Part shown: piece after piece, positions 2,668 through 27,810 of the stretch
Position numbering within the stretch: the stretch's first letter is position 1
Layout: each line of letters opens with the position of its first letter
NCBI GenBank assembly: GCA_965242865.1
Contig: CBDETK010000013.1
Span: 3,616,001 to 3,680,000 of the forward strand
Direction: 5' to 3'
Length of the DNA: 64,000 nucleotides
Source of the DNA: Candidatus Latescibacterota bacterium
GTDB lineage: Bacteria; Latescibacterota; UBA2968; UBA8231
Program-made: the position numbers and the translations under genes
Notes under the pieces: model-generated
What the model was told of the DNA's origin: nothing
The model's database searches: none
The model's input: the letters and a program-made list of their open reading frames with translations, nothing else

Positions 2668-5637
2668 ATGGTTTTGCTGGTGCTGATGCTGGCGGCATGG
2701 ACGCCCGGGCACGCGAGCGAGTGGCTGCAATTGCGCGGCGACCGCCAGATGAGCGGCCGGGCCTCGGGGATCGGTCAAATGCGCCACGGCCCGCCGCAAG
2801 AACGCTGGCGTTACGACATCGCCGCTTGGGAGGGCTATGTGGAAGTAGCCCAGCAGGAGGGCGACGCCTCGGTGGCCTTGCCCTTTGCCGCCCCAGTAGC
2901 TCCCAATTACATCGGCACCCAAGGGCGAGCTTGGGGGGTCGGGCCACCGATTTTTGACCTCGGCGGCGTCGAGGTCGCCATGCCGCTGGACAATGGCTTC
3001 AAAGTGGCCCAGATACTGCCCGGGGAGGCGGGCTTGCAGCGCTTTGAGATGGGAAATTCTTTCAGCGATGGCGGGGCCGCGCCCAAGCAGGGCCGACTGC
3101 TCGCGTACGACCACGGCGAGCCCTGGGTCGTGTGGGAGACCGAGTTCTTTGCCAACACTTGGGATCCCAATGTCTTGGTGGTGGACGTCGATGCAGACGG
3201 CCAACTCGACATCGTCGTGGCCACCCACTACCGCATCCTCGTCTTCGACGGGGCCACCGGAGAAACCAAAATGCAGTTGCAGTACCACGGGTATCGCAAC
3301 TACGGCTGGTTCGGGGCCGCCAACATCGACGACGATCCGTATCCCGAGTTCGGGGTGGTGGCCGATTTTAGCATGCACACCGAGGTCATTGACAACGACG
3401 GGACGGAATTGACCCTGCGCTGGCTGCGCGACATTCAGCCCGACCCAGCGCAATCAACCAAGGTCGTGCGGCCCAAACCGCAGGCCCTAGTGGATGTGGA
3501 CGGCGATGGTCGCTTTGAGCTGGTGTACAGCATCTACAACGATCAAGGCGATGGGCAGTGGCACGTGGTCGGCGTCGATGCGCTCAGCGGCGAGACCCGT
3601 TTTGATTTCCCGCAGCACCATTTGCACGGTATGGCCGATGTGGATGGCGACGGGCGTTTGGAGCTGTTCGTCTCGGCTACGACTGGCGAAGCCCTGCCAA
3701 CGTATGCGCCGCTGGCGGTCTGGTCCTTGACGGCGGGAGCGGCAACCGTGCGCTGGAGCCACGAGCGAGGCCGCTTCAGTACGGTACTGCTGAACCAATT
3801 GCCCCTAGCGGTGAGCACCGGCGCGGCCGACGGACTGCGCACGGTGTCAACCGGCGACGTAGATGGCGATGGCCGGCGCGATTTCTTCGCGCTCGCGCCG
3901 GACGGGGCCGGCGAAGTGTTAGCCGCTTGGGGCAGCGATCACACGGGACGCATCGGACCGCGCTGGTCGGTGCGCGGTCCGGCCGGGATGGCCCTAGAAG
4001 CAGCGGCGGTGGCGGACAACGGGGCGGCCCTGCTGTATCTCAAGGGACGGGGGCTTCCCAGTCAGACGCTGATGCTGGAGCAGGCCTCGGGCGAGTTGCA
4101 CCAGTGGAGCCGCCAAGCATTTACCCCGGCCGGCACACCCGTAGTAGCTGATTTGGAGGGCGATGGCCGGGTGGAGGTGGTCGTGCAGACCGCGACCCAA
4201 GAAGTGCTGTGTCTGCAAGACTGGGGCGAGGGCGAGCCTCAACGGCGGTGGCAGGTGTCAGGTTACGGCCAGACCAACAACGCGCCCCACCACTGGGGCG
4301 TGGTCGCCGCCGATGTAGATGGCGATGGGCACCGGGAAGTACTGGCGGCGCGGGAGGCGGCCAGCGGCAACGCCAGCTTGGTGGCACTCGCGGCCGATGG
4401 CTCCATCCGCTGGCAGACCGAGTTCGTTGGCTTTGACGGCAGCATGCCGATATGGAATTTCAGCGGCCTGTCCTACTGGAGTGCTGGGTACTTTCGCAGC
4501 AACGAGTACATGGATGTATTCGCCAGTCTGCGGCGCGGCAAGTTGGGCAGCGAAGTGGGCTTTTTGCTCGACGGGCGCAGCGGTGAAATCGTCTGGGAAT
4601 CCAATGGTTTCGTCCTGCCCGAGGACGGCAGCGGTCGCAGTCTGGGGGGCCATCCCAGCGCGGCCGGGGATGTGGACGGCGACGGCTTAGACGAGATCGT
4701 GGTGATGTGGCCCGACCGACTACACATCGTCGACGGAGTCACGGGCACGGCGCAGGTGGTGCGCCAAGCTTATGGGTATTCCAACGGCCTCAATCCGCTG
4801 TTTGAGAGCGATTCCTTTGTCGGCTATGCCTTCCCAGCGGTGGTCGATTTATTTGGCGACAGCCGGCCCGAGCTCCTCTGGGGGCACTGCGGCTATTTGA
4901 ACGCCGTTTTGGACAGCCATGGCCAGCGCATCTGGCAGACCCCGTACCGCAACAATACCGAAGTGCAATCGCTGATGGGAGTGGGCGACAGCGATGGCGA
5001 TGGGGCCGCGGAACTACTCGCTTCCACCGCCGAGGGCGTCCGTCTTTTCCAAGCGGCGGATGGCGCGGTTTTGCTGGAGTTCGACGATGGGGTGCGGGCC
5101 TATACAGACGTGGTCTCCGGCGATGTGGACGGCGATGGGCGCGACGAGTTCCTGTTTGGCAGCGGCACCCAGTTGATCTGCGTGGAACAGGCCGAAGGCA
5201 CCCTGCGCCGGGCTTGGACGCTCGAGGTGGAGGGTCGCAGCAGCGACATTGCCTTGGCCGATGTGGATAGGGACGGTTTTCTGGACATCGTGGTGACGAC
5301 CGCGGATGGCTATGTAAAGGTGTATGTGGGGGAAGAGGACGCCACCGCGGTACAGGCTGCGGAGCGGACGCCGCAGAAAACCGATTTACATTTGCCCTAT
5401 CCCAACCCCTTCAACAGTCAAGTGCATATCGATTTCAGCGTGGGACGAGCCGGGATGGTGCGGCTGGAGGTTTTCGGCCCAACGGGACAGCGGGTGAAAA
5501 CGCTCGTGGCGGCGTGGCGCAAACGCGGGGCTTACCGGGTGCGTTGGGACGCGGGCGAACTCGCCAGTGGGGTGTATGTCGTGCGCTTGCAAGCGGGCGA
5601 TACCGTGCAGGAACGCAAGGTGTCGTTGGTCAAGTGA
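2668..5637 (+). CDS. Secreted FG-GAP/VCBS repeat protein with C-terminal T9SS/FlgD-Ig sorting domain
   Basis: Signal peptide; many DxDGDGxxE/D repeats; C-terminal YPNPFNS...LASGVYVVRL...KVSLVK. Confidence 0.85.
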   Translation: MVLLVLMLAAWTPGHASEWLQLRGDRQMSGRASGIGQMRHGPPQERWRYDIAAWEGYVEVAQQEGDASVALPFAAPVAPNYIGTQGRAWGVGPPIFDLGGVEVAMPLDNGFKVAQILPGEAGLQRFEMGNSFSDGGAAPKQGRLLAYDHGEPWVVWETEFFANTWDPNVLVVDVDADGQLDIVVATHYRILVFDGATGETKMQLQYHGYRNYGWFGAANIDDDPYPEFGVVADFSMHTEVIDNDGTELTLRWLRDIQPDPAQSTKVVRPKPQALVDVDGDGRFELVYSIYNDQGDGQWHVVGVDALSGETRFDFPQHHLHGMADVDGDGRLELFVSATTGEALPTYAPLAVWSLTAGAATVRWSHERGRFSTVLLNQLPLAVSTGAADGLRTVSTGDVDGDGRRDFFALAPDGAGEVLAAWGSDHTGRIGPRWSVRGPAGMALEAAAVADNGAALLYLKGRGLPSQTLMLEQASGELHQWSRQAFTPAGTPVVADLEGDGRVEVVVQTATQEVLCLQDWGEGEPQRRWQVSGYGQTNNAPHHWGVVAADVDGDGHREVLAAREAASGNASLVALAADGSIRWQTEFVGFDGSMPIWNFSGLSYWSAGYFRSNEYMDVFASLRRGKLGSEVGFLLDGRSGEIVWESNGFVLPEDGSGRSLGGHPSAAGDVDGDGLDEIVVMWPDRLHIVDGVTGTAQVVRQAYGYSNGLNPLFESDSFVGYAFPAVVDLFGDSRPELLWGHCGYLNAVLDSHGQRIWQTPYRNNTEVQSLMGVGDSDGDGAAELLASTAEGVRLFQAADGAVLLEFDDGVRAYTDVVSGDVDGDGRDEFLFGSGTQLICVEQAEGTLRRAWTLEVEGRSSDIALADVDRDGFLDIVVTTADGYVKVYVGEEDATAVQAAERTPQKTDLHLPYPNPFNSQVHIDFSVGRAGMVRLEVFGPTGQRVKTLVAAWRKRGAYRVRWDAGELASGVYVVRLQAGDTVQERKVSLVK

Positions 5638-5770
5638 GCCGGCGCGGAGCAGAGATCCCAAAGACCCGTCTGAAACCGATAGCAAGCGGCGCATTGACAA
5701 CTCAGATGGAGGAAATGTGTGGCCCCGTATCTTATGAAGGGACACGACAGGCGAGTGGGGGCAACGGGGC

Positions 5771-5799
5771 TTGACCCGATGCGAGGGATACGATACACT
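5771..5799 (+). promoter_or_regulatory. Putative sigma70 promoter of the dndA/dndC-like operon
   Basis: TTGACC-17 nt-TACACT. Confidence 0.5.
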
Positions 5800-5916
5800 G
5801 AGTCTAACAGCTTACTTGGATGAGACGGCATCGGTTTCCTTGGTTGGTAAGCCATGCCTCCTTTACTAAGGGCCTGTCTTTATTTAGCCGCTTTACGGAA
5901 AAACGATCTCCGACTC

Positions 5917-7146
5917 ATGTATCCCGTTTATTTGGACTATGCCGCAACGACGCCTGTCGACCCGCAGGTCATCGCGGTGATGACCCAGTACCTAGGGCTG
6001 GATGGGACGTTCGGCAACGCAGCGTCGCGTTCACATCGCTTTGGACAAGAAGCCGGGGCGGCAGTGGAGAAGGCACGGAATCAGGTGGCCCAACTCATCA
6101 ACGCTGACCCGTCCGAGATCGTTTGGACATCGGGAGCCACCGAATCCGTCAATTTAGCTATCAAGGGCGTAGCGCATGGATATGCCCATCGAGGCAAACA
6201 TATCGTAACCTCAAGTCTGGAGCACAAAGCGGTTCTGGCTTCATGCGATAAACTAGCTCGTGAAGGATTCAAAATTACCTATATCAGCCCTAATCAGGAC
6301 GGTCTAATCTCCCCAGAACTCGTGAAGGAAGCGATGAGAGACGACACCATCCTCGTCTCCCTTATACACGTGAACAACGAAGTCGGGACCATCACCGACG
6401 TCAATGCGATCAGCGAAATAACTCGCACTCAGGGGATACCACTCCATGTGGACGCTGCTCAAAGCGTCGCTCGTTTATCGCTTGATACACGCTCTGTGAA
6501 AGCGGATCTTATTTCACTTAGCGGCCACAAGATGTACGGGCCAAAGGGCGTCGGAGCACTCTACGTGCGACGCTGCTGGCCCCGTGTCCAAATCGAACCT
6601 CAAATACATGGCGGCGGCCAAGAACAGGGCATCCGCTCGGGGACATTGGCAACACATCAACTAGTCGGCATGGGCGAGGCCGCACAATTGATATGTGAAC
6701 GTCGAAACCGCGATGTTGAAGCTATCGCCGAACTCGATCGCCGCTTGCTTGATCGTCTTGCAGATATTGAGCATACCTTCATAAACGGCAACAGTGCGAA
6801 CCGCGTTTCAGGAATCGTGAACGTAGGATTCGCTTGTGTCGAGAGTGAGTCCCTGATGATGTCGTTGAAGGACGTTGCTATCTCATCCGGCTCGGCCTGT
6901 ACGTCATCCCGCGTTGAGCCTTCCCATGTATTGCGGTCTTTAGGCTTGCCCGAGGATCTCGCAAGCTGCTCAGTCCGCTTCAGTCTCGGACGATTCACGA
7001 CTGAAGAAGAAGTCGACTTTGCTGTGTCATGCGTCCGGAACTCCGTTGACGCCTTGCGCCAATTGTCCCCCCAATGGCGAGCACTTCGCCGAAGGGACCA
7101 TGGCACCAACCCGTACTCTCTGGTACGGCCGGCAGTGATGACATGA
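5917..7146 (+). CDS. dndA: IscS/DndA-type cysteine desulfurase
   Basis: YLDYAATTP, TSGATES, SGHKMYGPKG (PLP Lys) and SSGSACTS (catalytic Cys). Overlaps a DndC-like gene, with no isc genes nearby. Start moved to the ATG at 5917. Confidence 0.85.
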   Translation: MYPVYLDYAATTPVDPQVIAVMTQYLGLDGTFGNAASRSHRFGQEAGAAVEKARNQVAQLINADPSEIVWTSGATESVNLAIKGVAHGYAHRGKHIVTSSLEHKAVLASCDKLAREGFKITYISPNQDGLISPELVKEAMRDDTILVSLIHVNNEVGTITDVNAISEITRTQGIPLHVDAAQSVARLSLDTRSVKADLISLSGHKMYGPKGVGALYVRRCWPRVQIEPQIHGGGQEQGIRSGTLATHQLVGMGEAAQLICERRNRDVEAIAELDRRLLDRLADIEHTFINGNSANRVSGIVNVGFACVESESLMMSLKDVAISSGSACTSSRVEPSHVLRSLGLPEDLASCSVRFSLGRFTTEEEVDFAVSCVRNSVDALRQLSPQWRALRRRDHGTNPYSLVRPAVMT

Positions 7147-8333
7147 ACGAGCACACCCAACAGAGATCCGGCGCAAGCGATAGCCATAGTGTCGTCGAGC
7201 GGCTCGACGACACTATGGACATCATTCGGAGGGAGTACTTGCGTAAGCATCTCGACCCGTGGGTAGTGGCCTATTCTGGTGGAAAAGATTCGACCTTGCT
7301 TCTCCAACTGATATGGGAGGTGTTGGCACCGCTTCCTGCCCATTCGCGGCGGCGCAAGGTCTATATAGTAGGCAATGATACGCTAGTCGAGTCGCCGCTG
7401 GTCATCCGACATCTCAAAACTACCATATCGACGATCAGCACCGCTGCCGCCGCGAACGAACTGCCGATCGAGACGCAGATCACGAGGCCGCATATCGATC
7501 AAACTTTCTGGGTCAACGTGATTGGACGTGGCTACATTCCCCCGACACGAAATTTCCGATGGTGTACCGATCGAATGAAAATTGTCCCAACTAGCCAATT
7601 ACTCGAAAATCTTGTTCGTACGCACAAGCGTACTGTGCTATTGGTGGGAACGCGCAAGAGTGAGTCCGAGAACCGCCGCCGCAACATGGCAAAGCACGGC
7701 GTTTCGGCAACCAAGATGAATCCTCACAGTTCTGTCGAGGGGTGCCGTATCTTCGCACCGCTCGCCGAATTCAAAGACGAGGATGTGTGGCTGATCCTAA
7801 TGCAACGAAGGCCACCATGGGGAGGCTCGCATCGCGATCTAATCACTCTGTATCGGAACGCTGGTGGAGGGGAATGCCCGCTGGTACTGACCAAGGACGA
7901 TGCACCCTCATGTGGAACAACCTCACCTAGGTTCGGTTGCTGGACATGTACCGTCGTCAGTAAAGATCGGAGCTTGCGCGGCTTAATCGATTCTGGCCAC
8001 GAAGATGCAGAGGTTTTCACACGTCTCTTCGACTTCCGTGAGCGGCTGGTCCAACTCCGCGAAGACGATGCAAACCGTCAGCGCGTACGGCGAGATGGAA
8101 ACTTGAAATCCCGTGCCGACGGAACTCCTGTCATGGGACCTTTCAAACTCGATGTCCGCAAGCGTATTCTGAGTGAATTGCAGGCTTTGCAACAAGAAAT
8201 AGCACAACAGCTAATTACCGAATCAGAACTCGACGTCATCGAGGACATCTGGCGTCGAGACCAAATTCGCCAAGACTGTCGTTCGGCCCTAGACGAAGCG
8301 ATTACTCCTAATCCTGAAGGAGCTTCGGCTTGA
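7143..8333 (+). CDS. dndC: DndC-type DNA phosphorothioation sulfurtransferase (PAPS reductase family)
   Basis: PWVVAYSGGKDS PP-loop, NDTLVE, FWVNVIGRGY, FRWCTDRMKI, GTRKSES, ECPLV, SCG..SPRFGCWTCTVV..DRS; ATGA overlap with the upstream stop. Confidence 0.9.
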   Translation: MNEHTQQRSGASDSHSVVERLDDTMDIIRREYLRKHLDPWVVAYSGGKDSTLLLQLIWEVLAPLPAHSRRRKVYIVGNDTLVESPLVIRHLKTTISTISTAAAANELPIETQITRPHIDQTFWVNVIGRGYIPPTRNFRWCTDRMKIVPTSQLLENLVRTHKRTVLLVGTRKSESENRRRNMAKHGVSATKMNPHSSVEGCRIFAPLAEFKDEDVWLILMQRRPPWGGSHRDLITLYRNAGGGECPLVLTKDDAPSCGTTSPRFGCWTCTVVSKDRSLRGLIDSGHEDAEVFTRLFDFRERLVQLREDDANRQRVRRDGNLKSRADGTPVMGPFKLDVRKRILSELQALQQEIAQQLITESELDVIEDIWRRDQIRQDCRSALDEAITPNPEGASA

Positions 8334-10126
8334 CAAAGCAATCTCAGACTGTTATCGGGGCAGAAGCGATGTTGTTTTCGGATCTGTTCCAACAGGGCCG
8401 TTTCGATGTCCCGTGGCATCAGCGCTATTACGATTGGCAGCAGAGCGATGTCCATGCACTACTCCACGACATCAATGATGCGATCAAGGAAAGCCGCGAC
8501 TGCTACTTCCTAGGTGCCATCATGCTCGTAACGGTTGGACAACGACGGTGGGAGATAAACGATGGCCAACAACGAATGGTAACGATATCGTTGATTTGCG
8601 CCGCGCTTTGCCGCCGGTTCGTACATAAAGCAAAGGGTTCGCAACGGGAAGGACTCGCGTTAAGGATGCTGTTCGACCTTGATGCCCAAAGGACATGGAT
8701 CATAGACAACACAGATCGTTACACCCCTCGGATTTTTCCGGCGAAGAATGACGCTATGCCATATCGCCAAATGATTCGTGGGAACCCGATTAGGGCCAAC
8801 GGTCCACTCACTGCCGCATGGACAGAGATCGAGAGCTTCTTCTCTCCCATGAGTTACGAGGAATCAGAACGGTATTTCGACTTTCTTCTTGAGAAGCTCG
8901 AAGTAGCATGTCTGCGGGTTCCACCGCACATCGATCCGAACGCCGTATATGAGACAATCAACTGTAGAGGTAAGCAACTAGACGACTTGGACCTCATCCG
9001 CAATTATCTATATTCGCATTTTAACTCGGAAAGCGATTCCGAGAGAAAAAATTCGGTGCATGAAAATCTAGAGAAAATCCGAACAATTATTCCTAGCTCT
9101 AAGAAAGCATCCGAATACATGCGGTGCCACCTACAGTGCAAATTCGGCTTTCTACGCAAGGATCACTTCTACCGCGACGCACGGGACGCTATCCGTACCC
9201 AGAGGGACAGAAGACACGGAACGACTGAGCTTTTAGCGGATTATACGTTCAACTTGATTGAACAAATCACCTCTCCCGAGTCTTTGGAACTCTTCCGAAC
9301 GCTAGCGGCGGCGACTCCCGACCCTGACTTTATCCGCGAATTCAGAGTGGCTTCAGGCACAACTAACTCTCCTAGGAATTTGGCGGTTTTTCTTCGAGAA
9401 TTGCGCAGATATACAATTACTCAGCCCTTGATATTTGCCATGTTGACTCGGTGGGTTCAAGAATCGGATGGCCGCAAAAAGAAACGGATTGCGCGAATTG
9501 CCAATAGAAATCTGAGTCGTCTAGCGACTTTCGTCCTCAGAACAGCGTTCATTACACCCAAGTTTGAGCCGTCTCACTTTGAATCTGAGTTCTCGAACTA
9601 TGCAAAGAATATCGCAGCAGCCGACGATATTCCTGATGACGAATTCGCTAATTTCTTACAGAGTTGCGATCGGTCGGCGCATGCACATGGAGTGCTAGAC
9701 GACTCCAAATTTCTGGACGAGATGGTTGAGGCTAGAATGACCGCTCACCCGAAAATCAAGCAGCTCCTACTCGGGATCAACGGTGCCATACAGGGCGACG
9801 CACAGCTATTCATTGAACGAGATTGCAATGTGGAGCACATACTTCCAAAGTCTCCGCAGCATTGGAGTGGCTGGAGTAGCTTCAATGACGTCGATAGATC
9901 CGAATGGGTCCACCGGATCGGAAACTTGACACTAATGGGACCGGCGGACAATAGGCCCGGGGAGAAATATAACGGTAATTTCGCGAAGAAACGTGAGAGC
10001 TATCAAGACAGTAGTATCATGCTTACACGTAGCCTAAGCCAATATGATGACTGGAGTCCGGCTAATATCGAAATCAGGCAGCGAGAAATGGCAAAACTGG
10101 CAGTTCGTGTATGGAAGTTTGTTTGA
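8330..10126 (+). CDS. DUF262 + DUF1524 (HNH) protein, SspE/GmrSD-like modification-dependent nuclease
   Basis: VPWHQRYYDW, YFLGAI, DGQQR, YETINCRG; C-terminal VEHILP...RIGNLTL; TTGA overlap. Confidence 0.88.
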   Translation: MTKQSQTVIGAEAMLFSDLFQQGRFDVPWHQRYYDWQQSDVHALLHDINDAIKESRDCYFLGAIMLVTVGQRRWEINDGQQRMVTISLICAALCRRFVHKAKGSQREGLALRMLFDLDAQRTWIIDNTDRYTPRIFPAKNDAMPYRQMIRGNPIRANGPLTAAWTEIESFFSPMSYEESERYFDFLLEKLEVACLRVPPHIDPNAVYETINCRGKQLDDLDLIRNYLYSHFNSESDSERKNSVHENLEKIRTIIPSSKKASEYMRCHLQCKFGFLRKDHFYRDARDAIRTQRDRRHGTTELLADYTFNLIEQITSPESLELFRTLAAATPDPDFIREFRVASGTTNSPRNLAVFLRELRRYTITQPLIFAMLTRWVQESDGRKKKRIARIANRNLSRLATFVLRTAFITPKFEPSHFESEFSNYAKNIAAADDIPDDEFANFLQSCDRSAHAHGVLDDSKFLDEMVEARMTAHPKIKQLLLGINGAIQGDAQLFIERDCNVEHILPKSPQHWSGWSSFNDVDRSEWVHRIGNLTLMGPADNRPGEKYNGNFAKKRESYQDSSIMLTRSLSQYDDWSPANIEIRQREMAKLAVRVWKFV

Positions 10127-11526
10127 CGTCTGACTTGCGATACCTTCGCCGTTTCGCAGAAAGCCAACTCGGCGTTCCCGCGACGCTCCACAATTACCAG
10201 TGGGAGGGTATCGCGTTTTTGTATCGATCTCGCTCTGCCCTCCTCGCTGACGAGATGGGGCTGGGGAAAACTGTCCAGACTGCGGTAGCACTAGCACTTC
10301 TCTTGAACGGACAGAGCGAGGTACGCCGGGCCTTGATCGTCGCACCCGCATCGCTGACGACGAACTGGATGATGGAGATCTCGACTTGGGCACCATCAGT
10401 GGCGACGCGGCGCGTACAGGGTACTGTACGCGACCGTAAAGCGTTTTACCTACTGCCAATCCCTGTCCTCGTGAGTTCTTACGAGCAAATTCGATTCGAT
10501 GGCTTGGACCGGATTCCCTCGGATACCTTCGATCTCGTGATTCTTGATGAGGCCCAACGAATCAAAAACAGGGATTCCACTACTGCATTAGCCTGCCGGC
10601 TCCTGCCGCGCAAACGTGCTTGGGCGTTGTCTGCTACACCTCTCGAAAACGACGAAAATGATATTGTATCTATTCTCCGTTTCCTCGACCCGTCGGTTGG
10701 ACGAGAGCTTTCTAAATCGTACTTGGTCAAAAAATTGGAGTCGATGATGCTTCGCCGGCGAAAGTCTGGCGTTCGTACTGAACTGCCGCCAGTTATATTC
10801 CAAGACTTGAAAATCGAACTCTCAGTACCGCAGAGAACAAGGTACGACGAACTATGGGTAAATCGCACCCAGACCATCATTAAAAACTCATCTGACGGAG
10901 ATCGCAGCACCGCGTTGCTTGGGCTCATCACACGACTGAAGATTATCTGTAATTTCGATGCACCCGCGAACGCCTCGTCAAAATTGGACGCTCTGAAGAC
11001 GATTAGCGAAGGGGTCGGAAATTCTGCTCGCATTCTTGTATTCTCGCAGTTCGTCGAAACTCTACGATGGATTTCGGATAGGATTGAACTTCCGCACGAC
11101 CTCTTGACAGGATCAATGTCGCTTGCCGAGAGGCAGATTGCCATAAACCGGTTTAGGACCGGGGCTACGCCTCGGGGACTTATGGTATCTCTTCGGGCAG
11201 GAGGCGTGGGCTTGAACTTGGGAGAGGCGACGCACGTCGTGCTCTTCGACAGGTGGTGGAATCCCGCAGTCGAGGTCCAAGCGATCTATCGAGCTCATCG
11301 CTTTGACCGAGAGGAGCCATTACACGTTATTCGTTTCCTCGTAGCCGATTCGATCGAGGAGCGCATCGAAACGATACTTGAACAAAAGAAATGTCTGTTC
11401 GATGAAGTAATCGAATCCGCGGAAACACCTACTCATCGCTTCACAAAGGAGGAACTGATGCAGATTTTGGAACTTACAACCGGAGACATCTTTCTGGCGC
11501 ACACACACAAAAAAGAGGAGATCTAA
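10123..11526 (+). CDS. Stand-alone SNF2-family ATPase/translocase
   Basis: LLADEMGLGKT, DEAQ, SATPLEN, LVFSQF, GGVGLNL, DRWWNPAVEVQAIYRAHR; probable TTG start overlapping the upstream TGA. Confidence 0.9.
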   Translation: MTSDLRYLRRFAESQLGVPATLHNYQWEGIAFLYRSRSALLADEMGLGKTVQTAVALALLLNGQSEVRRALIVAPASLTTNWMMEISTWAPSVATRRVQGTVRDRKAFYLLPIPVLVSSYEQIRFDGLDRIPSDTFDLVILDEAQRIKNRDSTTALACRLLPRKRAWALSATPLENDENDIVSILRFLDPSVGRELSKSYLVKKLESMMLRRRKSGVRTELPPVIFQDLKIELSVPQRTRYDELWVNRTQTIIKNSSDGDRSTALLGLITRLKIICNFDAPANASSKLDALKTISEGVGNSARILVFSQFVETLRWISDRIELPHDLLTGSMSLAERQIAINRFRTGATPRGLMVSLRAGGVGLNLGEATHVVLFDRWWNPAVEVQAIYRAHRFDREEPLHVIRFLVADSIEERIETILEQKKCLFDEVIESAETPTHRFTKEELMQILELTTGDIFLAHTHKKEEI

Positions 11527-11530
11527 AGTC

Positions 11531-12355
11531 ATGGCAAAGATCGTTGAGTATAAAGATATTCCGCTCGATAACCTGACCATTGGAAAAGGGCAGGCACGGG
11601 TCCAAGACGTCGGCAAGGAAATTGAAGACTTGGCCGAAAGCATCAAAGTGCAAGGACTGCTACAGCCGATTGTAGTCTGTCCAGCGAGGGATGCGGGTAA
11701 GTGGGAGATTCTCACAGGCCAGCGGCGGTTCTTGGCACATAAGGATCTGAGCCGGGAAAGCATCACGGCAGCCATTCTTGACGAACGAGTTGAAGAGCAC
11801 GAAGCCAAGGCCATCTCGATTACCGAGAATCTTATTCGGCGAAAGCTCTCCGGAAAAGATCTTATCGACGGAGTCACTTACCTGTACAACGCCTATGGAG
11901 GAAATGCAAAGGCTGTAACGGAAGCTACGGGCTTGTCCTACAAAAACGTGCGGGATTACGTGAAGTACCCGCGGTTGGCATCCAAGTTGAAAGAGATGGT
12001 TGATGAAGGGCAAATCGGTGTCAATGTCGCCCTAAAGGCGCAAGATGCTGCCACTAAGGACGACGGAGAGACAGACATTGATGTCGCTACTAAATTAGCC
12101 CAAGAAATGGAACAAATGACGGGCCCCCAACGCACAAAATTTTCTGAGGAATTTAAGAAAAACCCTGCCAAACCAATTGACGACAAAATTGAGGATGCGA
12201 GAACTGGGGCTAGAGTAACGCAGGTAACGGTGACCCACGACACACACAGGGCTATCCGAAGGTTTGCACAAGAAGAAGGTACCAACCAAGACGAGGCGAT
12301 TTCTGCCCTCATCGAAGAAGCACTGATTGGGCGCGGCCTCTTAGAGGAGGAGTAG
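11531..12355 (+). CDS. ParB/Spo0J-like protein (ParB N-domain + HTH, possible C-terminal ribbon-helix-helix)
   Basis: LAESIKVQGLLQPIVV, TGQRRFLA (GxRR box), ISITENLIRRKLS; GAGGAG RBS. Confidence 0.85.
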   Translation: MAKIVEYKDIPLDNLTIGKGQARVQDVGKEIEDLAESIKVQGLLQPIVVCPARDAGKWEILTGQRRFLAHKDLSRESITAAILDERVEEHEAKAISITENLIRRKLSGKDLIDGVTYLYNAYGGNAKAVTEATGLSYKNVRDYVKYPRLASKLKEMVDEGQIGVNVALKAQDAATKDDGETDIDVATKLAQEMEQMTGPQRTKFSEEFKKNPAKPIDDKIEDARTGARVTQVTVTHDTHRAIRRFAQEEGTNQDEAISALIEEALIGRGLLEEE

Positions 12356-12360
12356 AGTCG

Positions 12361-13083
12361 ATGCTGGCCGGGTTGAGCACCTTGGAACTTGCACGCCTTC
12401 GGATGTCCGTGGGTTACGGGACACACAAGAAGGGGCGCCCGTACTCTCCCATAGAGGTGGGATCACTTTTCCGCAAAGCTCGCGACTCAGGTGCATCTCT
12501 CAGGGACTGTGCAACCGAGGCCCGCATCGACGGAACAGGCGTCGGTCGTTTTTTACGAATTCTCGACCTACCGCACGATCTTCGACATCTAGTTGATTGG
12601 GGATCTGGCAAGGACGCTATCGGCTTTTCGTCCGCTATTGAGTTGGTACGGCTTCAGGATCTTGACGATCAGCGTATCGTCGCTAGTTCGATCCTCGCAG
12701 ATGGCCTCAATGGAAAAGAGGTCCGACAGGTCGTACAACTTAGAATGCGTTCGGAGCGTCCTATTTGCACATGCCTAAAGGAAATCTTAGGTATGCGTCC
12801 AGTAATCGAAAGACGCTACGTCTTCATCGGTTCGGTTGTTGATCAGAATGTCGAGGACGCTCTCATAGAACTCACGCAGACGGAGAGAGATTCGATTCTT
12901 GAGTCGGGTATCAAACTTCTCAACATCCGAGGAGCGTCTGGTCGGCTCGGAAAGCGATTCTTCACACTAGTCGGAAACGAGGGCTTTGATGCGTCAATGA
13001 AGAGCATTGGCAAGGAGAGCATTGAGGCGCGGCTTCGAACCCACATCTCGGAGACTGTTGAGAATGCCCGACCCCATTGTTGA
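12361..13083 (+). CDS. ParB-type HTH protein lacking the N-terminal NTPase domain
   Basis: SPIEVG...SLRDCA...VGRFLRILDLP..LRHLV...IGFSSAIEL...GLNGKEVRQVV matches the ParB HTH/spacer pattern by eye; strong RBS. Confidence 0.6.
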   Translation: MLAGLSTLELARLRMSVGYGTHKKGRPYSPIEVGSLFRKARDSGASLRDCATEARIDGTGVGRFLRILDLPHDLRHLVDWGSGKDAIGFSSAIELVRLQDLDDQRIVASSILADGLNGKEVRQVVQLRMRSERPICTCLKEILGMRPVIERRYVFIGSVVDQNVEDALIELTQTERDSILESGIKLLNIRGASGRLGKRFFTLVGNEGFDASMKSIGKESIEARLRTHISETVENARPHC

Positions 13084-14095
13084 CGTTCTTGAGAGTGGTG
13101 CCGTCTGCCTCGGGTCAAAAGTAGTGTGTGATGGTTTCGCCGAAGGATACCCTTTCCGCGTCCAGACACATATCCACGATGACCACATGGGCGAGTTCGA
13201 CAAGAGCAAGGGCTTTCAGGATTTTCTGATGAGTCCAGAAACGTATGCACTTCTGGTAGAGGAACGCAATGCAGACCTTGAGTTCCGTGACAATATTCAC
13301 CGAGTAAATCGAGGCGACGAGCGTGTGCTCGACGACGGCTCGAAGCTATCCCTTCTTCCCTCCAACCACATGCTCGGCTCATGTCAAGTCGCACTGGAAT
13401 TACCCGACGGCCTCCGAGTCGGCTATTCAAGTGACTTCGGCTGGCCCCTCAATGAGGTTATTCAAGTCGACGAGCTCGTTGTGGACAGCACCTATGGGAG
13501 TCCCAGAAGCGTACGCCGCTACACCCAAGCGGAAGCGGAGGAGTGTCTGTTAAACCTCGTATGCGAGCGATTGCGACATGGTTCTGTGCATGTCAAAGCT
13601 CACAGAGGAACTATCGAGCGCGTGTTGCATGTACTCGGGGTCAACGTAGGGGTTCCGATTTTGGCCAGCGAACGACTCATTGGGGAAGTGAAGGTCTATC
13701 AGAATCACGGATCCGCTATCGGGGACCTATACGCACTCGACTCGGACGCAGGTCAATCTGCCATGAGGGAACGAGCCTATATTCGACTGTATTCAAAGGG
13801 AGATGGTTTAGGCAACGAACCAATCGGCGAAACGAGCGTCACATGCAGCGCGTACATGGCCAATGCCGATGATCCGCTGGTGACATATTCTGATCGGGCT
13901 TATAGGGTGGCGTTATCTAATCATGCGGACTTCAATGAAACGCTTGAGTACGTTAAGGCGACGAGGGCCAAGAAAATTGTCACGGATAACACACGAAACC
14001 ACGGAGTGGATTTGGCCACCGCCATCAATGAGCGTCTCCCGGGCGTACAGGCTCATCCATCAACGAATAACCCCGGACATAATCCATATCGTTGA
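13064..14095 (+). CDS. Metallo-beta-lactamase/beta-CASP nuclease (SNM1/Artemis-like)
   Basis: THIHDDH, NHMLGS, YSSDF, VDSTYG, LSNHADF motifs; ATG at 13064 overlaps the upstream gene. Confidence 0.85.
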   Translation: MPDPIVDVLESGAVCLGSKVVCDGFAEGYPFRVQTHIHDDHMGEFDKSKGFQDFLMSPETYALLVEERNADLEFRDNIHRVNRGDERVLDDGSKLSLLPSNHMLGSCQVALELPDGLRVGYSSDFGWPLNEVIQVDELVVDSTYGSPRSVRRYTQAEAEECLLNLVCERLRHGSVHVKAHRGTIERVLHVLGVNVGVPILASERLIGEVKVYQNHGSAIGDLYALDSDAGQSAMRERAYIRLYSKGDGLGNEPIGETSVTCSAYMANADDPLVTYSDRAYRVALSNHADFNETLEYVKATRAKKIVTDNTRNHGVDLATAINERLPGVQAHPSTNNPGHNPYR

Positions 14096-14177
14096 AGACC
14101 GAAGGTAATTAAGACGCGGACATGGCCTACAGCAATTCACATGGCCCGTCTATGTACCTTCCTCAAAGGAGCGATGC

Positions 14178-17126
14178 CTAGTCCGCATCCGCCGGTCCTA
14201 CGGCGGCCTCATGGTGCTCTCTGAGCAGTTCGTCAAGGGCCTTGGAGGTATCCAAGTAATTGGACCATTCGTACGGCGTGATGCCAAAGCGCAGATCCCC
14301 TACCAATGGGTTCGCGCCCCGCGCCAAGAGCAGGCGAGCCATCGCTAGCTGATCGGCCATGACGGTTTTGTGCAGCGGCGTACTGCCGCGATCGTACCGG
14401 CTAAACCCACCGGCCAACCCGTTAATATCCGCGCCGCGATCCAACAAAAACTCCGCCGCTTCCAACGCGCCACTATAAGCCGCAAAATTGAGTGCTTCCA
14501 CCATAATCTGATCGGCGGTGAGCACGGTGTCCGGGTCCGGGTGGTAGAGGTGTCCGGTTCCTTCTTTCAACTTGTCCTCTGGGTCGAAGAACTCGGCCAT
14601 CAGGTCAATGCGGTTGACGCCCGCGGCAAAGCGCAAATCCACGGTCGCTCCCTCGGCTACCAACATGTGCGCCAAATCTAGGTCCCTCTCCCTAAGCGCG
14701 TTCCATAACATTCGGCCCCGGTTGCGGTTCACATCCACGCCGTTGGACACTAGGAGCTGGATCATTTCGGGCTTGCTCTCGGCCCATTCGAGCTGATCGC
14801 TTTCTACGAACAGATCCAGCACGGCGACCGAGTCGTACGTGGCGGCGTTGGGGTCGGCTCCTGCTGCGAGTAACGCCGCGGCGAGTTCAACCGCGTTTGC
14901 CGGCAACGGCACTCGCTGTGGCTCGCCGGCTAGGTGGTGCAAGAGCGTGGCCCCGCGAAAGTGCGGGTATTCGTAATACTCGTCGAAATAGCCGCGGGCT
15001 GTCGTTAGCTTGGGGTGTTCTGCCAGCAACTTTTGCAGGGCCTCGGCGTCGCCGGCATCAATGGCTGCTACCGCCTCGTAATAGGCGTTGTAGTTGGCAT
15101 CGCCGCGGTCTCGGCCTTGGGGCGGCAGTCTTTCTCCCTCGCGGGGAATGGCCAAGGCGACCAATTCGGGCGGACGCCTTCGGTTGCCCAGCGGCACGAC
15201 CACGAACTGACGACCGCCAGCCGTGTAGCTCATCGGCGCACCGTAGGCGTTGCTAGGCAATTCGACGCGGCCAATCTGTTCGCCGGACGCCAAATCGTAT
15301 CCCCGCAGTGACGCATCGCGATCGACGAAGTAATCCTCGCCCGCGTCGGCTAGGCCGTGGGGGTCTTCGGAAGTGGCCAACAGAAGGTTCGGCGTGGCCA
15401 AGACGAAGGTGCGGTTGGCCCAGCCCATATACGGCAGGTCGAGGTCCTTGAGAGCCGGATGATCGACCGGACCTTTGCCCACCGTCGTCCGCCAGATATG
15501 CTCGCCGCTGTTGAGGTCAATCGCCGTGATGCTGCCGTAGGGCGGCTTGACCAGCGGCAGACCCCGAGGGCCAGCGACATACTCGTCAACGCGAGCAGAA
15601 AACGCCGAGTGTGCTTCTGGGTTCTCTACCGGGCGCAACTCCACGGTGGTGATGGCCTTATGCGACGGCACGTACAGGACGCCGGTGCGCGGATCGGCCG
15701 CACCGCCCGCCCAGTCCGCACCACCCCTTTGACCGGGGACTGACAAGACGCCCTTCTCGGTCGGCGGCGTGTAGAGCGGACCGTAGTCATACTCAGCGAG
15801 AATGGCCTTAGCCTCCTCCCGCAACTCCGGCGTGAAGTCAATCAGATCGTCCTCGCTGATGCCTTGATGTTCAAAGGCCGCCGGTTTGGTCGGAAAGGGC
15901 TGCGTCGGCGCGGTCTGTTCGCTTGGCACCTGCGACTGCGGCACCGGCTTTTCGACAATCGGCCAAATCGGTTCGCCGGTGACGCGGTCAAAGACGAAGC
16001 AGAAAGCCTGTTTAGTCAGTTGGACGACGACCTTGCGCGCTTGACCATCGACGACCACGTCCAACAGAAGGGGCGCAGCCGGCGGGTCGTAATCCCACAG
16101 GCCGTGGTGAACCAACTGATAGTGCCACACCCGCTCGCCGGTCGCGGCCTTGAGACAGACCACCGACTCGCTGAATAGGTTGTCGCCGGGGCGCTCGCCG
16201 CCGTAGTAGTCGTGGCTGGCCGTGCTCACCGGCAGGTAGAAGTAGCCCAATTCCTCGTCGGCGGTCATCGTCGCCCATACATTGGCCGCACCGTATTTCT
16301 TCCACGCCTCGTTTTCCCACGTTTCGTTGCCGTATTCGCCCTCTAACGGAATCGTGTGAAACTCCCACACCTTCGCGCCGGTCCGCACGTCAAACGCTTG
16401 CACATCGCCGGGAGGCGTGTACTCGGCCGGCGGCCGACCACGCACATCTAAGATCGCCGAGCCAACAGCCACCACATCGCGACACACCACGGGCGGTGCC
16501 GTAACTCCGTAGCCTCTGCGCTCTCTTTCGCCCAGCGGCCGACGCAGCAAGGCACCCAAATCGACGCGCCCGCCCTCGCCAAAATTCGGATCTGGGACGC
16601 CGGTCTTGGCGTCGATGGAATACAGATGGGCGGTCGAAGTGGCCAGAAACACCCGCTCAACCTCGCCATCGGTCCAATAGCTCACCCCGCGCGAATTGCC
16701 CAAGAAAAAGGAACCAGCCTTCCAAGCCTCTGGGTCGAAAGCCCATAGCTCCTCGCCACTTTGGCCGTCAATGGCCGAGAGGATGTTGAAGGGCGAGCCA
16801 TAGTAGAGCACGCCGTTCACGGCCAGCGGCGTGGCGCGGTGATTGTCGAAACGGAGGCGGGAACGACCGCGCCGCCGACCACCCCGGCCCCGATCCCGGC
16901 TTCGGCTAGCATTGGCCGCCTCATAGATCTGCTGATCGCGGGGGCGATAACGCCAGATTACGCGCAACTGATCGAAGTTGTCGCGATTGATCTGATCGGC
17001 CGGAGTGTAGCGGGTGCCGCCTCGGTCAGCAGCGTAGTACGGCCAATCAACCTCACCGGCAAACGCCGCGAGTGCGAACGACAGCGACAACAAGATCGAC
17101 GAGGTCCTACAGGCGCGTTTATTCAT
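14178..17126 (-). CDS. PQQ-dependent (glucose/quinate-type) dehydrogenase fused to C-terminal ankyrin repeats
   Basis: Signal peptide, WPYYAADRGGTRY, HHGLWDYDPPAAP, KPPYGSITAIDL; C-terminal GATLLHH, STPLHK, GADIN ankyrin motifs; start MNKRAC at 17126. Confidence 0.85.
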   Translation of the reverse strand: MNKRACRTSSILLSLSFALAAFAGEVDWPYYAADRGGTRYTPADQINRDNFDQLRVIWRYRPRDQQIYEAANASRSRDRGRGGRRRGRSRLRFDNHRATPLAVNGVLYYGSPFNILSAIDGQSGEELWAFDPEAWKAGSFFLGNSRGVSYWTDGEVERVFLATSTAHLYSIDAKTGVPDPNFGEGGRVDLGALLRRPLGERERRGYGVTAPPVVCRDVVAVGSAILDVRGRPPAEYTPPGDVQAFDVRTGAKVWEFHTIPLEGEYGNETWENEAWKKYGAANVWATMTADEELGYFYLPVSTASHDYYGGERPGDNLFSESVVCLKAATGERVWHYQLVHHGLWDYDPPAAPLLLDVVVDGQARKVVVQLTKQAFCFVFDRVTGEPIWPIVEKPVPQSQVPSEQTAPTQPFPTKPAAFEHQGISEDDLIDFTPELREEAKAILAEYDYGPLYTPPTEKGVLSVPGQRGGADWAGGAADPRTGVLYVPSHKAITTVELRPVENPEAHSAFSARVDEYVAGPRGLPLVKPPYGSITAIDLNSGEHIWRTTVGKGPVDHPALKDLDLPYMGWANRTFVLATPNLLLATSEDPHGLADAGEDYFVDRDASLRGYDLASGEQIGRVELPSNAYGAPMSYTAGGRQFVVVPLGNRRRPPELVALAIPREGERLPPQGRDRGDANYNAYYEAVAAIDAGDAEALQKLLAEHPKLTTARGYFDEYYEYPHFRGATLLHHLAGEPQRVPLPANAVELAAALLAAGADPNAATYDSVAVLDLFVESDQLEWAESKPEMIQLLVSNGVDVNRNRGRMLWNALRERDLDLAHMLVAEGATVDLRFAAGVNRIDLMAEFFDPEDKLKEGTGHLYHPDPDTVLTADQIMVEALNFAAYSGALEAAEFLLDRGADINGLAGGFSRYDRGSTPLHKTVMADQLAMARLLLARGANPLVGDLRFGITPYEWSNYLDTSKALDELLREHHEAAVGPADAD

Positions 17127-17249
17127 CGGATTTTCCTTTTCCGTGCTGGGTGCCGCTTCAAGGCTTCGCGCAGTTACCGTAGGGCGTGAGGCGTCTCGCC
17201 CCAGCGCACGGTGCCGATCAAGGAGCCGCGCTCCGACGGTCAAGTAGCG

Positions 17250-17905
17250 GCATCCTAGCGGGTGCCCGCCTTCTCTACTGCGGCCTTCATGGTGCGCTCT
17301 AAGCAACTCGTCGAGGGCCTTAGAGGTATCTCAACTGGGCCATCTCTAGCTGATTGGCCATGAAGGTTTTGTGCAGGGGTTTAGTAACTAATGGTGCTAG
17401 TATGTTGACCGTGGTCAAAGTAGTTCCTACGCTGAGGGTATCTCACCTTTCAGCCAAGGAGCGTCCTGATGACCACGGCCGAGTTTATAATAGCCCTGTT
17501 TTACCGAATCGACAATCAGATGCTTGCCGTGCCCAAACACCCGCAAGCGTCCTTATATCCGAGTGAGGTAGTCACTTTAGGGGTGTTGTATGCGCTCAAA
17601 GGCGGGGGTAAACGGGCATTTTACCACGGGCTGGTGCGGGACTGGCAGGCTTGGTTCCCGCGCCTGCCGTCGCGCACCCGCTTGTTCCGCCTCTTCGCCG
17701 CTCATGCCGATTGGACCGACCGCTTCCGAGCGGAGCCGACGACATTGGGAGTGGTCGACAGCTATGGCATTGAGTTGCGCCATCCGGTGCGTCAAGGCCG
17801 GGCGCAGCACGCCATTGGGAAGAAAGGGCTATCCAATCACCGTTGGATCAAAACACTAGCACCATTAGTTAGTACAGTGGTCGAAGCGGTGGAACCCAGT
17901 AGCAA
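17250..17905 (-). pseudogene. 3' remnant of a third PQQ-ankyrin gene, interrupted by IS982-like copy 1
   Basis: With the IS removed it reads GFHRFDHCTKPLHKTFMANQLEMAQL [deletion] DTSKALDELLRAHHE, homologous to the C-terminus of 14178-17126. Confidence 0.75.
17387..17869 (+). mobile_element. IS982-family-like element, internally deleted copy
   Basis: 15-bp TIR actaatggtgctagt/actagcaccattagt; TAGTA duplicated at 17382-17386 and 17870-17874; lacks the segment equivalent to 41658-42060 of copy 2. Confidence 0.85.
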
Positions 17906-25003: not shown

Positions 25004-25176
25004 TTTGTACCCTCGTTAATCTTAATCTCTTAAAAATAACAAATCTGCCTCAAATCAGGCTATGCTTCTACCTCGATAGGAGAGTTTTGGATAATATGCT
25101 CTTTTCCCGCGAAAACGGGAATCCAGCCGGTATCGTTTAGACGCAAAGGACAACCATCAGAGTTTTCAGACAGCTT

Positions 25177-25288
25177 TGCTCTGTTGAAAAGGCTTATTTA
25201 TTAGCTTGGTTCGCTCCATTATTCTATAATAACATCGTAGGAGCAAGCTATACAAGAAGCCTCCTTAACTCTGCTTTTCAACAGAGCA
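25177..25288. mobile_element. 112-bp MITE
   Basis: Perfect 15-bp TIR tgctctgttgaaaag/cttttcaacagagca flanked by a 9-bp direct repeat agacagctt (25168-25176, 25289-25297). Confidence 0.8.
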
Positions 25289-25297
25289 AGACAGCTT

Positions 25298-25465
25298 CTA
25301 AGAAGCGTTCTTAAATAGGTATTCGGGGTCTCCGGGGTCTCAATCGGCTCAGGCTATTTAGGGCCGCGGCCATCTTCGCCCTATGAAAAACGCTGGACGC
25401 CAAGGCCGCTCGACAGCCTCGCCAAGCACCAAGCGTCCAACAGGGATTTTAAAAAGGCTTCTTAG
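25298..25465. mobile_element. Second MITE-like element
   Basis: Imperfect 18-bp TIR (16/18) ctaagaagcgttcttaaa / tttaaaaaggcttcttag; the right end overlaps the stop codon of 25462-26517. Confidence 0.55.
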
Positions 25466-26517: not shown

Positions 26518-26526
26518 TTTTTCCTC

Positions 26527-27795: not shown

Positions 27796-27810
27796 TTCCA
27801 GTCACTTCTA

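Follow-up and report, generated by a model that had tools for sequence, protein, structure and literature searches.

A conserved operon joining a short DndC to a SNF2–ParB–ParB′–beta-CASP nuclease module: a candidate DNA phosphorothioation defence system in Candidatus Latescibacterota

DNA phosphorothioation (PT) is written by the Dnd, Ssp, Tdp and BREX-4 systems, and the effectors that accompany these writers are DndFGH, DndI, PbeABCD, SspE and SspFGH. In Dnd systems sulfur passes from the desulfurase DndA or IscS to DndC, a transfer that is well established, and DndD and DndE are essential in the canonical form. Here we describe a seven-gene operon (g1–g7) at positions 5917–14095 of a 64,000-nucleotide stretch of Candidatus Latescibacterota bacterium DNA (GenBank assembly GCA_965242865.1, contig CBDETK010000013.1, positions 3,616,001–3,680,000, forward strand), the whole of which is referred to below as the window. 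The operon encodes a desulfurase, a short DndC and a DndI-like protein (g1–g3, module A), followed by a SNF2-family ATPase, two ParB-type proteins and a protein of beta-CASP nuclease fold (g4–g7, module B, of which g5–g7 are called the trio). We propose that it may be a derived, streamlined PT defence system in which module A would serve as writer and reader, module B as effector, and the two would travel together; on the genomic evidence, we consider this reading about evenly balanced between right and wrong.

Several described systems share parts of this gene set. The IscS-DndBCDE-DndI system of Salmonella enterica Cerro 87 (PMC11662687) likewise combines a desulfurase, DndC and a protein of about 600 amino acids (aa) carrying DUF262 (DGQQR) and DUF1524 (HNH) domains, but the operon is devoid of DndB, DndD and DndE, its DndC is short, SNF2, ParB, ParB′ and beta-CASP proteins are added, and the likeness of g3 is remote. 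DndCDEA-PbeABCD (PMC6459918) joins a PT module to a four-gene accessory cassette with a helicase-type motor, and PbeABCD is reported there not to cleave viral DNA. Neither PbeA (a PLD-helicase) nor PbeC (an SMC-like ATPase) is found in the window; the operon has a SNF2 motor in their stead, and a nuclease fold is present. SspABCD-SspE resembles the operon in its desulfurase, PAPS-reductase-type enzyme and DUF262/DUF1524 effector, whereas the operon has no match to SspB (DUF4007) or SspC, the SspD match of g2 (1.1e-6) is weaker than its DndC match (1.6e-116), and SspE models reach only the N-terminal ~100 residues of g3, so that Ssp membership was rejected. Of type 4 BREX, only BrxP gave a match, partial and confined to the PP-loop region of g2 (9.8e-14); BrxC, PglZ and BrxL had none, and this system was likewise set aside.

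Dpd (DpdA–K) is a modification-based defence joining the ParB-like ATPase DpdB and the SNF2 helicase DpdE. In contrast, the operon has no transglycosylase and no DpdA, DpdB or DpdC, g4 matches only the helicase core of DpdE and lacks its long N-terminal region, and g5 is a classical ParB/Noc protein without a DpdB match; the operon is thus not a Dpd system. A ParABS partition system was also considered and rejected: there is no ParA-type gene in the operon, and a search of 5600–14300 for parS-like palindromes found only short or imperfect ones inside coding sequence, none convincing. We take TdpA and TdpB to be, unlike the operon's products, neither SNF2, ParB nor beta-CASP proteins. TdpABC, compared here by description only, resembles the operon in having a DndC-type enzyme that is said to make PT without DndD or DndE (PMC12914056).

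Open reading frame (ORF) coordinates agree with the preliminary description of the locus, which had claimed seven co-oriented, tightly packed and intact genes: 5917–14095 is filled by seven forward-strand ORFs with a largest gap of 5 nucleotides (nt). The overlaps listed there can be read directly in the sequence (ATGA at 7143–7146, TTGA at 8330–8333 and TTGA at 10123–10126), and the coordinates also bear out a 4-nt gap between g4 and g5, a 5-nt gap between g5 and g6 and a 20-nt overlap of g6 with g7. Genes g3 and g4, which overlap by 4 nt at the last of these TTGA sites, are likely to lie on one transcript with coupled translation. The operon is indeed GC-poor, with a G+C content of 0.48–0.56 against 0.60–0.66 in both flanks. 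The absence of the canonical partners is confirmed too, as PADLOC and Pfam detected no DndD, DndE, DndB, DndF–H, Pbe, SspB or SspC among the ORFs scanned in the window. DndD was found neither in the 13 ORFs of 1483–22206 (PADLOC) nor in 37 further window ORFs (Pfam); no DndE model matched in the window, and the operon's gaps of at most 5 nt leave no room for a small gene. The only ATP-binding cassette (ABC)-type fragment in the window is a 265-aa ATPase at 42479–43276 on the reverse strand (PADLOC HEC-01B, 3.2e-104, profile positions 1–248 of 395), probably a truncated remnant of another defence gene.

The domain calls made earlier for g1–g5 hold (Aminotran_5/IscS, PAPS_reduct/DndC, GmrSD_N plus GmrSD_C, SNF2-rel_dom plus Helicase_C, and ParB_N). 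Gene g1 (5917–7146, forward strand; alternative ATG start at 5854) encodes an IscS-subfamily cysteine desulfurase predicted to fill the DndA/SspA role of sulfur donor. It matches Pfam Aminotran_5 (6.9e-84) and the PADLOC models SspA (1.7e-156) and DndA (4.5e-155); in NCBIfam it exceeds the cut-off of IscS PRK14012 (571 against 548 bits) and stays below that of DndA TIGR03235 (417 against 480 bits). The DndA/IscS desulfurase needed by Dnd systems is thus represented by g1, which passes the IscS equivalog cut-off. Gene g2 (7143–8333, forward strand; alternative start at 7074) encodes a short DndC, a PP-loop ATP pyrophosphatase/sulfurtransferase, scoring above the NCBIfam DndC cut-off (TIGR03183, 346.5 against 290.4 bits, profile positions 8–362 of 447) and covering positions 8–382 of 481 in the PADLOC DndC profile. 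Aligned with six full-length DndCs from related DndCDE loci, g2 ends about 100 residues early at the C-terminus, and the block without a counterpart in g2 is present in all six. It retains the PP-loop SGGKDS as well as RWCTD, GECPL, SCG and FGCWTC in that alignment, and SGGKDS, RWCT[DEA]R, G[ED]CPL and FGCW[TV]C each occur in 62 of 62 sequences. The DndC with PP-loop and Fe-S cysteines that Dnd chemistry calls for is therefore present, minus its C-terminal ~100 residues. No indication of which part of DndC touches DndD and DndE was found in the available part of PMC12345140.

Gene g3 (8330–10126, forward strand) encodes a DndI-like protein with a DUF262 domain (ParB-fold NTPase, DGQQR) and a DUF1524 domain (HNH nickase). 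Both Pfam domains lie above cut-off (GmrSD_N 2.5e-21, GmrSD_C 5.6e-23), full-length PADLOC matches are HEC-06 (1.2e-72) and 'Orf5' (4.5e-49), and the motifs DGQQR and EH[IV][LF]P are both present in 51 of 51 sequences; g3 thus has the DUF262 (DGQQR) plus DUF1524 (HNH) composition of the DndI/SspE type. Its best relative in the Protein Data Bank (PDB) is DndI (9JFL; E 7.6e-11, 44.5 bits, 598 against 596 aa), with both domains aligned, although the pairwise alignment is too weak to locate in g3 the tyrosine of the hydrophobic PT-sensing patch of such effectors. The preliminary description had called this protein SspE-like; its identity as a DUF262-HNH protein stands, while the affinity shifts from SspE, whose models match as noted only at the N-terminus, to DndI. 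The latter is described as a PT-sensing ATPase and nickase that damages PT-free cells (PMC11662687).

A wider comparison started from g7, which has 1034 relatives at E ≤ 0.001 among 4364 candidates, the 120 listed ones all being at least 69% identical. An alignment of 21 g7 sequences was searched against a one-genome-per-species collection; 115 stretches matched, 79 were confirmed and 78 loci were fetched, nearly all from metagenome-assembled genomes (MAGs), with genes called crudely as longest non-overlapping ORFs. The seven window proteins were compared with these loci by tblastn, a match over at least 80% of the window protein counting as full-length. At least one protein matched at that length in 72 of the 78 loci, the other six (L073–L078) holding g7 fragments only. 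Fifty of the 78 contain g2 at 55% identity or more together with g3 and are said to have the window's form. All seven genes are present in 38 of these, g1 is missing from nine (in one of which, L002, it is cut by the contig end), g1 and g4 from two, and g4 alone from one, which leaves g1 in 39 loci and g4 in 47; g2–g3 are kept with g4–g7 in 47. The 38 complete loci are colinear on one strand in 36 cases and measure 8006–8418 bp, with the exception of L019 (11015 bp). The seven-gene synteny, for which the preliminary description had recommended a neighbourhood comparison, is therefore conserved in unrelated genomes: the 36 colinear loci, out of 78 related ones, come from eight phyla (Acidobacteriota 11, Pseudomonadota 9, Binatota 6, Thermodesulfobacteriota 3, Rhodothermota 3, Gemmatimonadota 2, Latescibacterota 1 and Bacteroidota 1), and the 50 loci of the window's form from at least nine.

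All seven genes are under purifying selection, the ratio of nonsynonymous to synonymous divergence (dN/dS) being 0.11–0.30 in 20 of 21 comparisons of the window with L001, L002 and L003, and one comparison being saturated. L001, a Latescibacterota MAG, has both flanks in common with the window at 85–90% nucleotide identity; therefore the island is older than the split between the two. The most variable gene of the operon is g3 (median identity 50.5%). Between the window and L001 it shows a synonymous divergence (dS) of 1.18 and 75% identity, against dS of 0.10–0.36 and 87–95% identity for the other six genes, and the window g3 is 91% identical to that of L002 (window 8330–10126; L001 5270–7054; L002 1616–3403). 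These values point to exchange of the g3 allele by recombination, which fits a fast-evolving specificity or arms-race component. L002 itself, an 8.6-kb contig binned as Dehalococcoidia, is 88% identical to the window at the nucleotide level over 7.4 kb of the operon. The window's flanks, unlike this binning, match a Latescibacterota genome, and L002 represents either a very recent cross-phylum transfer or a mis-binned contig. Decaying copies were also seen: L025 is reduced to g6, g7 and a truncated g5, L052 has its g4 split in two, transposases lie inside or beside the module in L058 and L068, and isolated C-terminal g7 fragments occur in L073 and L075–L078. No plasmid or phage matched g7 in tblastn, nor did any plasmid match g6, which leaves no annotated mobile-element example.

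More distant loci, in which g7 is 46–55% identical, show module B in other company (PADLOC on 95 ORFs from 8 loci and 14 further ORFs, Pfam on 47 ORFs from 10 loci). In them g4–g5–g6–g7 adjoins a full-length DndC (480–540 aa), DndD and DndE, with PADLOC E-values for DndD down to 1e-227. L062 has the order DndC-DndD-DndE-g4-g5-g6-g7 on one strand, and L051 the same order followed by DndA; in L059 DndCDE and module B are convergent, and in L060 g4–g7 are followed by 'Orf5', DndA, DndE, DndD, DndC and DndB. By tblastn, DndD and DndE are both present in 11 loci (L051, L056, L059, L060, L062, L064–L067, L069 and L072); DndB also accompanies module B in L060, L064, L056 and L053, and in L036 DndE stands at the contig start directly before g4. 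L063 and L070 have no SNF2 gene, and the trio directly follows PbeA, a small ORF, PbeC and a ~150-aa ORF, read as PbeA-(PbeB)-PbeC-(PbeD), an order in agreement with the PbeABCD layout of PMC6459918; SspC, SspD and a BrnT toxin gene lie upstream of Pbe and the trio in L063 (1–11014), and the trio region of L070 spans 3466–10996. Mycobacterium sp. MFM001 (L069, 269–11038) is the one locus not labelled a MAG in its record title. There DndC-DndD-DndE precede a methyltransferase-like gene and a 158-aa ORF; an 816-aa SMC/LmuB-like ATPase then takes the place of SNF2 and is followed by a partial g5 match, g6 and g7.

The constant core is thus ParB-ParB′-nuclease with an exchangeable motor, beside three kinds of PT genes. 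Because module B or its trio adjoins a short DndC, DndCDE with or without DndB, and Pbe with SspCD, it is a portable companion of PT systems, and probably an effector. As for the origin of the window's form, a quick IQ-TREE analysis of concatenated g5, g6 and g7 was run on 67 rows, each having all three proteins at 85% coverage or more (12 loci were left out: L006, L025, L058, L060, L068, L069 and L073–L078). All 51 rows of the window's form fall into one cluster, with one label change, nested in DndCDE-linked rows: L036 (clade support 100), then L051 (98), then Poribacteria. On the simplest reading, the window's form would derive from a DndCDE-linked ancestor through a single loss of DndD and DndE, truncation of DndC and fixation of a DndI-like gene, followed by wide horizontal spread.

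Within module B, g4 (10123–11526, forward strand; alternative start at 10111) encodes a minimal SNF2-family ATPase/translocase of 467–471 aa that consists of the core only (Pfam SNF2-rel_dom 1.7e-42, Helicase_C 1.8e-19). It matches the PADLOC models DpdE (5.5e-60) and ZorD in the C-terminal helicase part only, and carries the Walker A motif GLGK[TS] in 61 of 61 sequences and DEAQ in 60 of 61. Gene g5 (11531–12355, forward strand) encodes a ParB/Noc-type protein with an N-terminal CTPase-fold domain and a helix-turn-helix (HTH). Pfam ParB_N (1.6e-14) and the generic ParB domain model TIGR00180 (76 bits, cut-off 58.45) recognise it, residues 7–165 match Noc/ParB structures in the PDB (E 4.4e-11), the motifs GQRR and EN[LM] are each found in 69 of 69 sequences, and PADLOC returned only a marginal PD-Lambda-5_A match. 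Its C-terminus (window 12131–12352) gives a sub-cut-off ribbon-helix-helix signal (RHH_6, E 0.002–0.006). DndE is described as a double ribbon-helix-helix protein (PMC10853773), and the g5 signal could echo DndE function, which we note as a lead only.

Gene g6 (12361–13083, forward strand) encodes a protein reduced to a ParB DNA-binding domain with an additional C-terminal alpha/beta domain. The sequence alone has no significant family match (sub-threshold Pfam HTH_ParB, E 0.0057), while a 30-sequence profile matches the HTH domain of Spo0J (residues 95–195, E 4.4e-5) and also Noc and KorB; the AlphaFold model (predicted local distance difference test, pLDDT, 92.3) finds only Noc, Spo0J and ParB among its top Foldseek matches (probability 1.0), with a TM-score of 0.80 to the Noc DNA-binding domain (6y93). 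Profile, model and Foldseek thus uphold the earlier assignment of g6 as a second ParB derivative, and its family comprises 308 representatives at E ≤ 1e-30. The C-terminal alpha/beta half matched no recognised family, relaxed-threshold Pfam gave nothing credible for it, and ESM Atlas queried with g6 returned ParB-HTH clusters only, with no new lead. The ParB/Noc/KorB clamps are resembled by g5 in its N-domain, with the GQRR and ENL motifs, and in its HTH domain, and by g6 in its HTH/DNA-binding domain; the operon differs from them in having no ParA partner or recognisable parS, in the missing CTPase domain of g6 and in its defence-type setting.

Gene g7 (13064–14095, forward strand) encodes a metallo-beta-lactamase-fold protein of the beta-CASP type, similar in fold and metal-binding motifs to SNM1A, Apollo, Artemis, CPSF73 and RNase J and equal in length to the SNM1A catalytic core; it differs from these nucleases in an identity of only 14–20% and in being a bacterial defence-operon member. 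NCBIfam's best match, 'ligase-associated DNA damage response exonuclease' (4e-14), lies below cut-off, and a g7 profile matches aCPSF1 (8e-8) and SNM1A (2e-5) in the PDB. Searched with the AlphaFold model (pLDDT 83.4), Foldseek gave SNM1A (9e-17), then Artemis, Apollo, CPSF73 and RNase J; there were 261 PDB matches at E ≤ 0.001, and each of the 50 listed is either a beta-CASP nuclease or a complex with one in it, type VII Cas14 being among them. The H-x-H-x-D-H motif, H102, D124, H287 and H313 are invariant in 21 aligned sequences, so that metallo-beta-lactamase motifs 1–4 and beta-CASP motifs A–C are all present by our own assignment of residues to motifs, as is the inserted CASP domain. The nuclease call made for g7 is therefore borne out by profile, structure model and invariant metal-binding residues. 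With a median identity of 68%, g7 is the best conserved part of module B. Neither g6 nor g7 is matched by any PADLOC 2.0 model, and NCBIfam gave nothing above cut-off for g3, g4, g6 or g7. A link between g6 and g7 is suggested by their 20-nt overlap, one fusion protein and a weak complex prediction. The match to g6 also extends beyond the beginning of g7 in most of the related loci, and P0140 (582 aa), a representative of the g6 family, is a g6-g7 fusion with 38% identity to g6 over residues 17–233 and 49% to g7 over 241–574. Longer fused forms of g7 (602–2000 aa) were not found, which is weak evidence.

We hypothesize the following order of events, in which the activities, PT writing without DndD and DndE, and a restricting rather than modifying role of module B are extrapolated from characterized relatives. 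The g1 desulfurase would hand persulfide sulfur to the short DndC g2, a precedent for which is the DndC-type protein TdpC, said to suffice alone for PT synthesis (PMC12914056). By likeness to DndI, g3 would bind and nick DNA, and NTP hydrolysis stimulated by PT would free it from self DNA that bears the mark. The g5 protein would load on DNA as a nucleotide-gated clamp, g6 would tether or position g7, and the g4 SNF2 motor would move the assembly along DNA. Finally, g7 would degrade DNA without the PT mark, perhaps by enlarging g3 nicks; SNM1-type 5′ exonucleases start from 5′-phosphate ends.

Several observations weigh against a derived PT defence system of this kind. The 50 loci of the window's form yielded neither DndD nor DndE by tblastn (three queries each) within about 10 kb. 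Modules A and B are separable, because they are mutually inverted in L032 and L040, an ankyrin-SH3 gene is inserted between g1–g3 and g4–g7 in L019 (4164–6700), three loci of the window's form have no intact g4 at the cut-off, and in L061 and L071 no PT gene lies within reach of module B or the trio. The branch parting the window's form from L036 is weak (support 49) in a tree rooted at the midpoint only, and some taxonomic assignments may be binning errors because the loci are nearly all MAGs. In g7, motif C appears to be a histidine (H313), which we take to be the state of RNA-acting beta-CASP enzymes; motif C is His in RNA-acting members and Val in SNM1/Artemis. For this reason the g7 substrate could be RNA. 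The single fusion P0140 could be a frameshift, a read-through or a gene-calling artefact of overlapping genes. Likewise, the g6-g7 complex prediction is weak: it scored 0.44 against 0.00 for the best control (partner pLDDT at least 79, contact agreement between runs at least 0%), and the mark used was passed by 58 of 80 solved complexes but also by 2 of 110 mismatched pairs. Only 7 of the 80 solved complexes passed it with a score of 0.60 or less, as did both of the passing mismatches.

The absence of DndD and DndE from all 50 loci, within the range searched, would fit a takeover of their work by module B. The preliminary description had suggested that SNF2 and ParB proteins may replace DndD and DndB; in a fuller form, module B would be modification machinery that replaces DndD, DndE and DndB in finding or opening sites for DndC, leaving g3 and g7 as sole effectors. 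Such a role would agree with the short DndC, which is without the C-terminal block of all six DndCDE-linked DndCs aligned, with the g3/g4 overlap and the coupled expression it makes likely, and with the fact that DndB and DpdB are ParB-superfamily proteins acting in modification (PMC10853773, PMC12839542). However, module B coexists with complete DndC-DndD-DndE in 11 loci, and with DndB in the four loci named above, so that its part cannot be a plain replacement of DndD or DndB, and the suggestion does not stand as made. The trio moreover follows PbeABCD, a restriction-side module, in two loci and was thus not born as a replacement, and g7 belongs integrally to module B, of which it is the best conserved member. 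We consider the replacement unlikely. Equally doubtful to us is a DndD/E-independent PT route in which the short DndC would be guided by a ParB clamp and SNF2 motor, the same assembly carrying the beta-CASP nuclease against unmarked DNA.

The separability of the modules invites a different explanation, namely that two independent systems are neighbours in a defence island, one being a minimal PT system of DndA-DndC-DndI-like composition and the other a SNF2-ParB-ParB′-nuclease system that works alone. The inversions in L032 and L040, the insert in L019 and the PT-less L061 and L071 favour it; in L071 (7446–15083) the trio adjoins a 322-aa weak SspD-like protein, two N6/N4 DNA methylases and a type II restriction endonuclease-like gene, with no DndC, and may be paired with methylation. 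Nevertheless, 47 of the 50 loci keep g2–g3 with g4–g7, g3 overlaps g4, and three PT architectures beside module B or the trio are hard to attribute to chance neighbourhood, which makes two separate systems quite improbable. Since module B accompanies PT writers, it might instead maintain or repair PT-modified host DNA, an SNM1-like exonuclease and a remodeller processing nicks or oxidative breaks; the best family match of g7 is a ligase-associated DNA-damage-response exonuclease, and its fold is like that of SNM1A and Apollo, which act in cross-link repair. But the loci scanned show no linked ligase, polymerase or recombinase, the trio also follows the defence module PbeABCD, and both the wide horizontal spread and the low G+C of the island are in keeping with defence genes, so that we hold repair to be very improbable. 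The preliminary description had also named dndD/E deletion in relatives as a sign of a canonical dnd island in decay; such an island would have ceased to modify DNA. Relatives with DndD and DndE do exist, the window's form is nested among them, and L025, L052, L058 and L068 are clearly decaying by truncation or transposase insertion. The window's form as such is not decayed, because the 50 loci from at least nine phyla share the same derived layout with full-length matches, kept catalytic motifs and a dN/dS of 0.11–0.30; conserved, intact and under purifying selection, it makes decay barely credible.

If the proposed PT defence system is real, its novelty would lie in module B and in the DndD/E-less layout. 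Segregation, nucleoid occlusion and plasmid gene silencing are the processes in which ParB-CTPase clamps are known to act, and a ParB role inside a restriction machine would be new. On the doubtful DndD/E-independent route, this would be the first defence system with a ParB-type sliding clamp doing the self/non-self scanning. As far as searched, the PT chemistry and the DndI-like reader are known, and the SNF2 + ParB-ParB′-beta-CASP module and the DndD/E-less layout are new. The earlier statement that no described system has this gene set is supported, as none was found in PADLOC 2.0 or the full-text literature searched; a DndC/PT system with SNF2, ParB and a metallo-beta-lactamase nuclease is not described in the available parts of that literature, including PMC12839542, PMC3632139 and PMC5099237. 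The nucleases of Dnd neighbourhoods listed in the part of PMC10853773 available are HKD-SF2, wHTH-SAD-HNH, HARE-HTH-REase, URI, NERD, HEPN and PIN, module B not being among them, and the accessible text of a survey of the ParB-CTPase fold (PMC12704722) contains 'SNF2', 'lactamase' and 'PAPS' zero times each. Module A is partly anticipated by PMC12914056, which flags as possible new PT systems some small DndC clusters that include a P-loop NTPase and, in one case, a DUF262 gene; its main text contains 'SNF2' zero times, and its figures and supplements may show more.

The SNF2-ParB-ParB′-beta-CASP set is accordingly a new candidate effector module on at least three PT backbones, and a short DndC kept under selection without DndD and DndE in at least nine phyla is a natural experiment on the need for these two proteins. 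If the DndD/E-independent route were real, horizontal transfer would have carried it into many phyla of bacteria that are uncultured and apparently live with hosts. Many of the carrier lineages, for example Poribacteria, are presumably associated with sponges or corals; a literature search for documentation of the habitat of carrier taxa found nothing. In sponge metagenomes PT genes are reported to be enriched 'even though not functionally complete' (PMC5099237), and the present operon type, common in Poribacteria, Binatia, Latescibacterota and similar lineages, may explain that picture.

Upstream of g1, a sigma70-like match (TTGACC-17-TACACT, 9 of 12 positions) lies at 5771–5799 on the forward strand, 118 nt 5′ of the gene. 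The preliminary description had placed the operon behind this one promoter; the region holds four such sites against 6.8 ± 2.5 in shuffled sequences, so the site carries no weight because its match count is not above chance, the host consensus may differ, and a promoter and terminator scan of the operon region gave nothing exceeding chance. The upstream flank encodes an FG-GAP protein with a type IX secretion tail, and the convergent downstream neighbour is a pyrroloquinoline quinone (PQQ)-dehydrogenase-ankyrin fusion (14178–17306, reverse strand) with a paralogue at 32362–35244 on the same strand. Elsewhere in the window are a protein with leucine-rich and low-density-lipoprotein-receptor repeats (39767–41206, forward strand) and sulfatases at 36224–37846 and 43312–44790 (both reverse strand). 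This repertoire of eukaryote-like repeats is, we assume, typical of animal-associated symbionts. A reverse-strand block at 20383–31463 (G+C 0.41–0.45) contains two genes for ABC transporters and one each for a PRMT-like methyltransferase, an asparagine-synthase-like protein and a transglutaminase-like protein (Transglut_core3); it looks horizontally acquired, and its pairing of asparagine-synthase-like and transglutaminase-like genes is what we take to be the signature of a lasso-peptide cluster.

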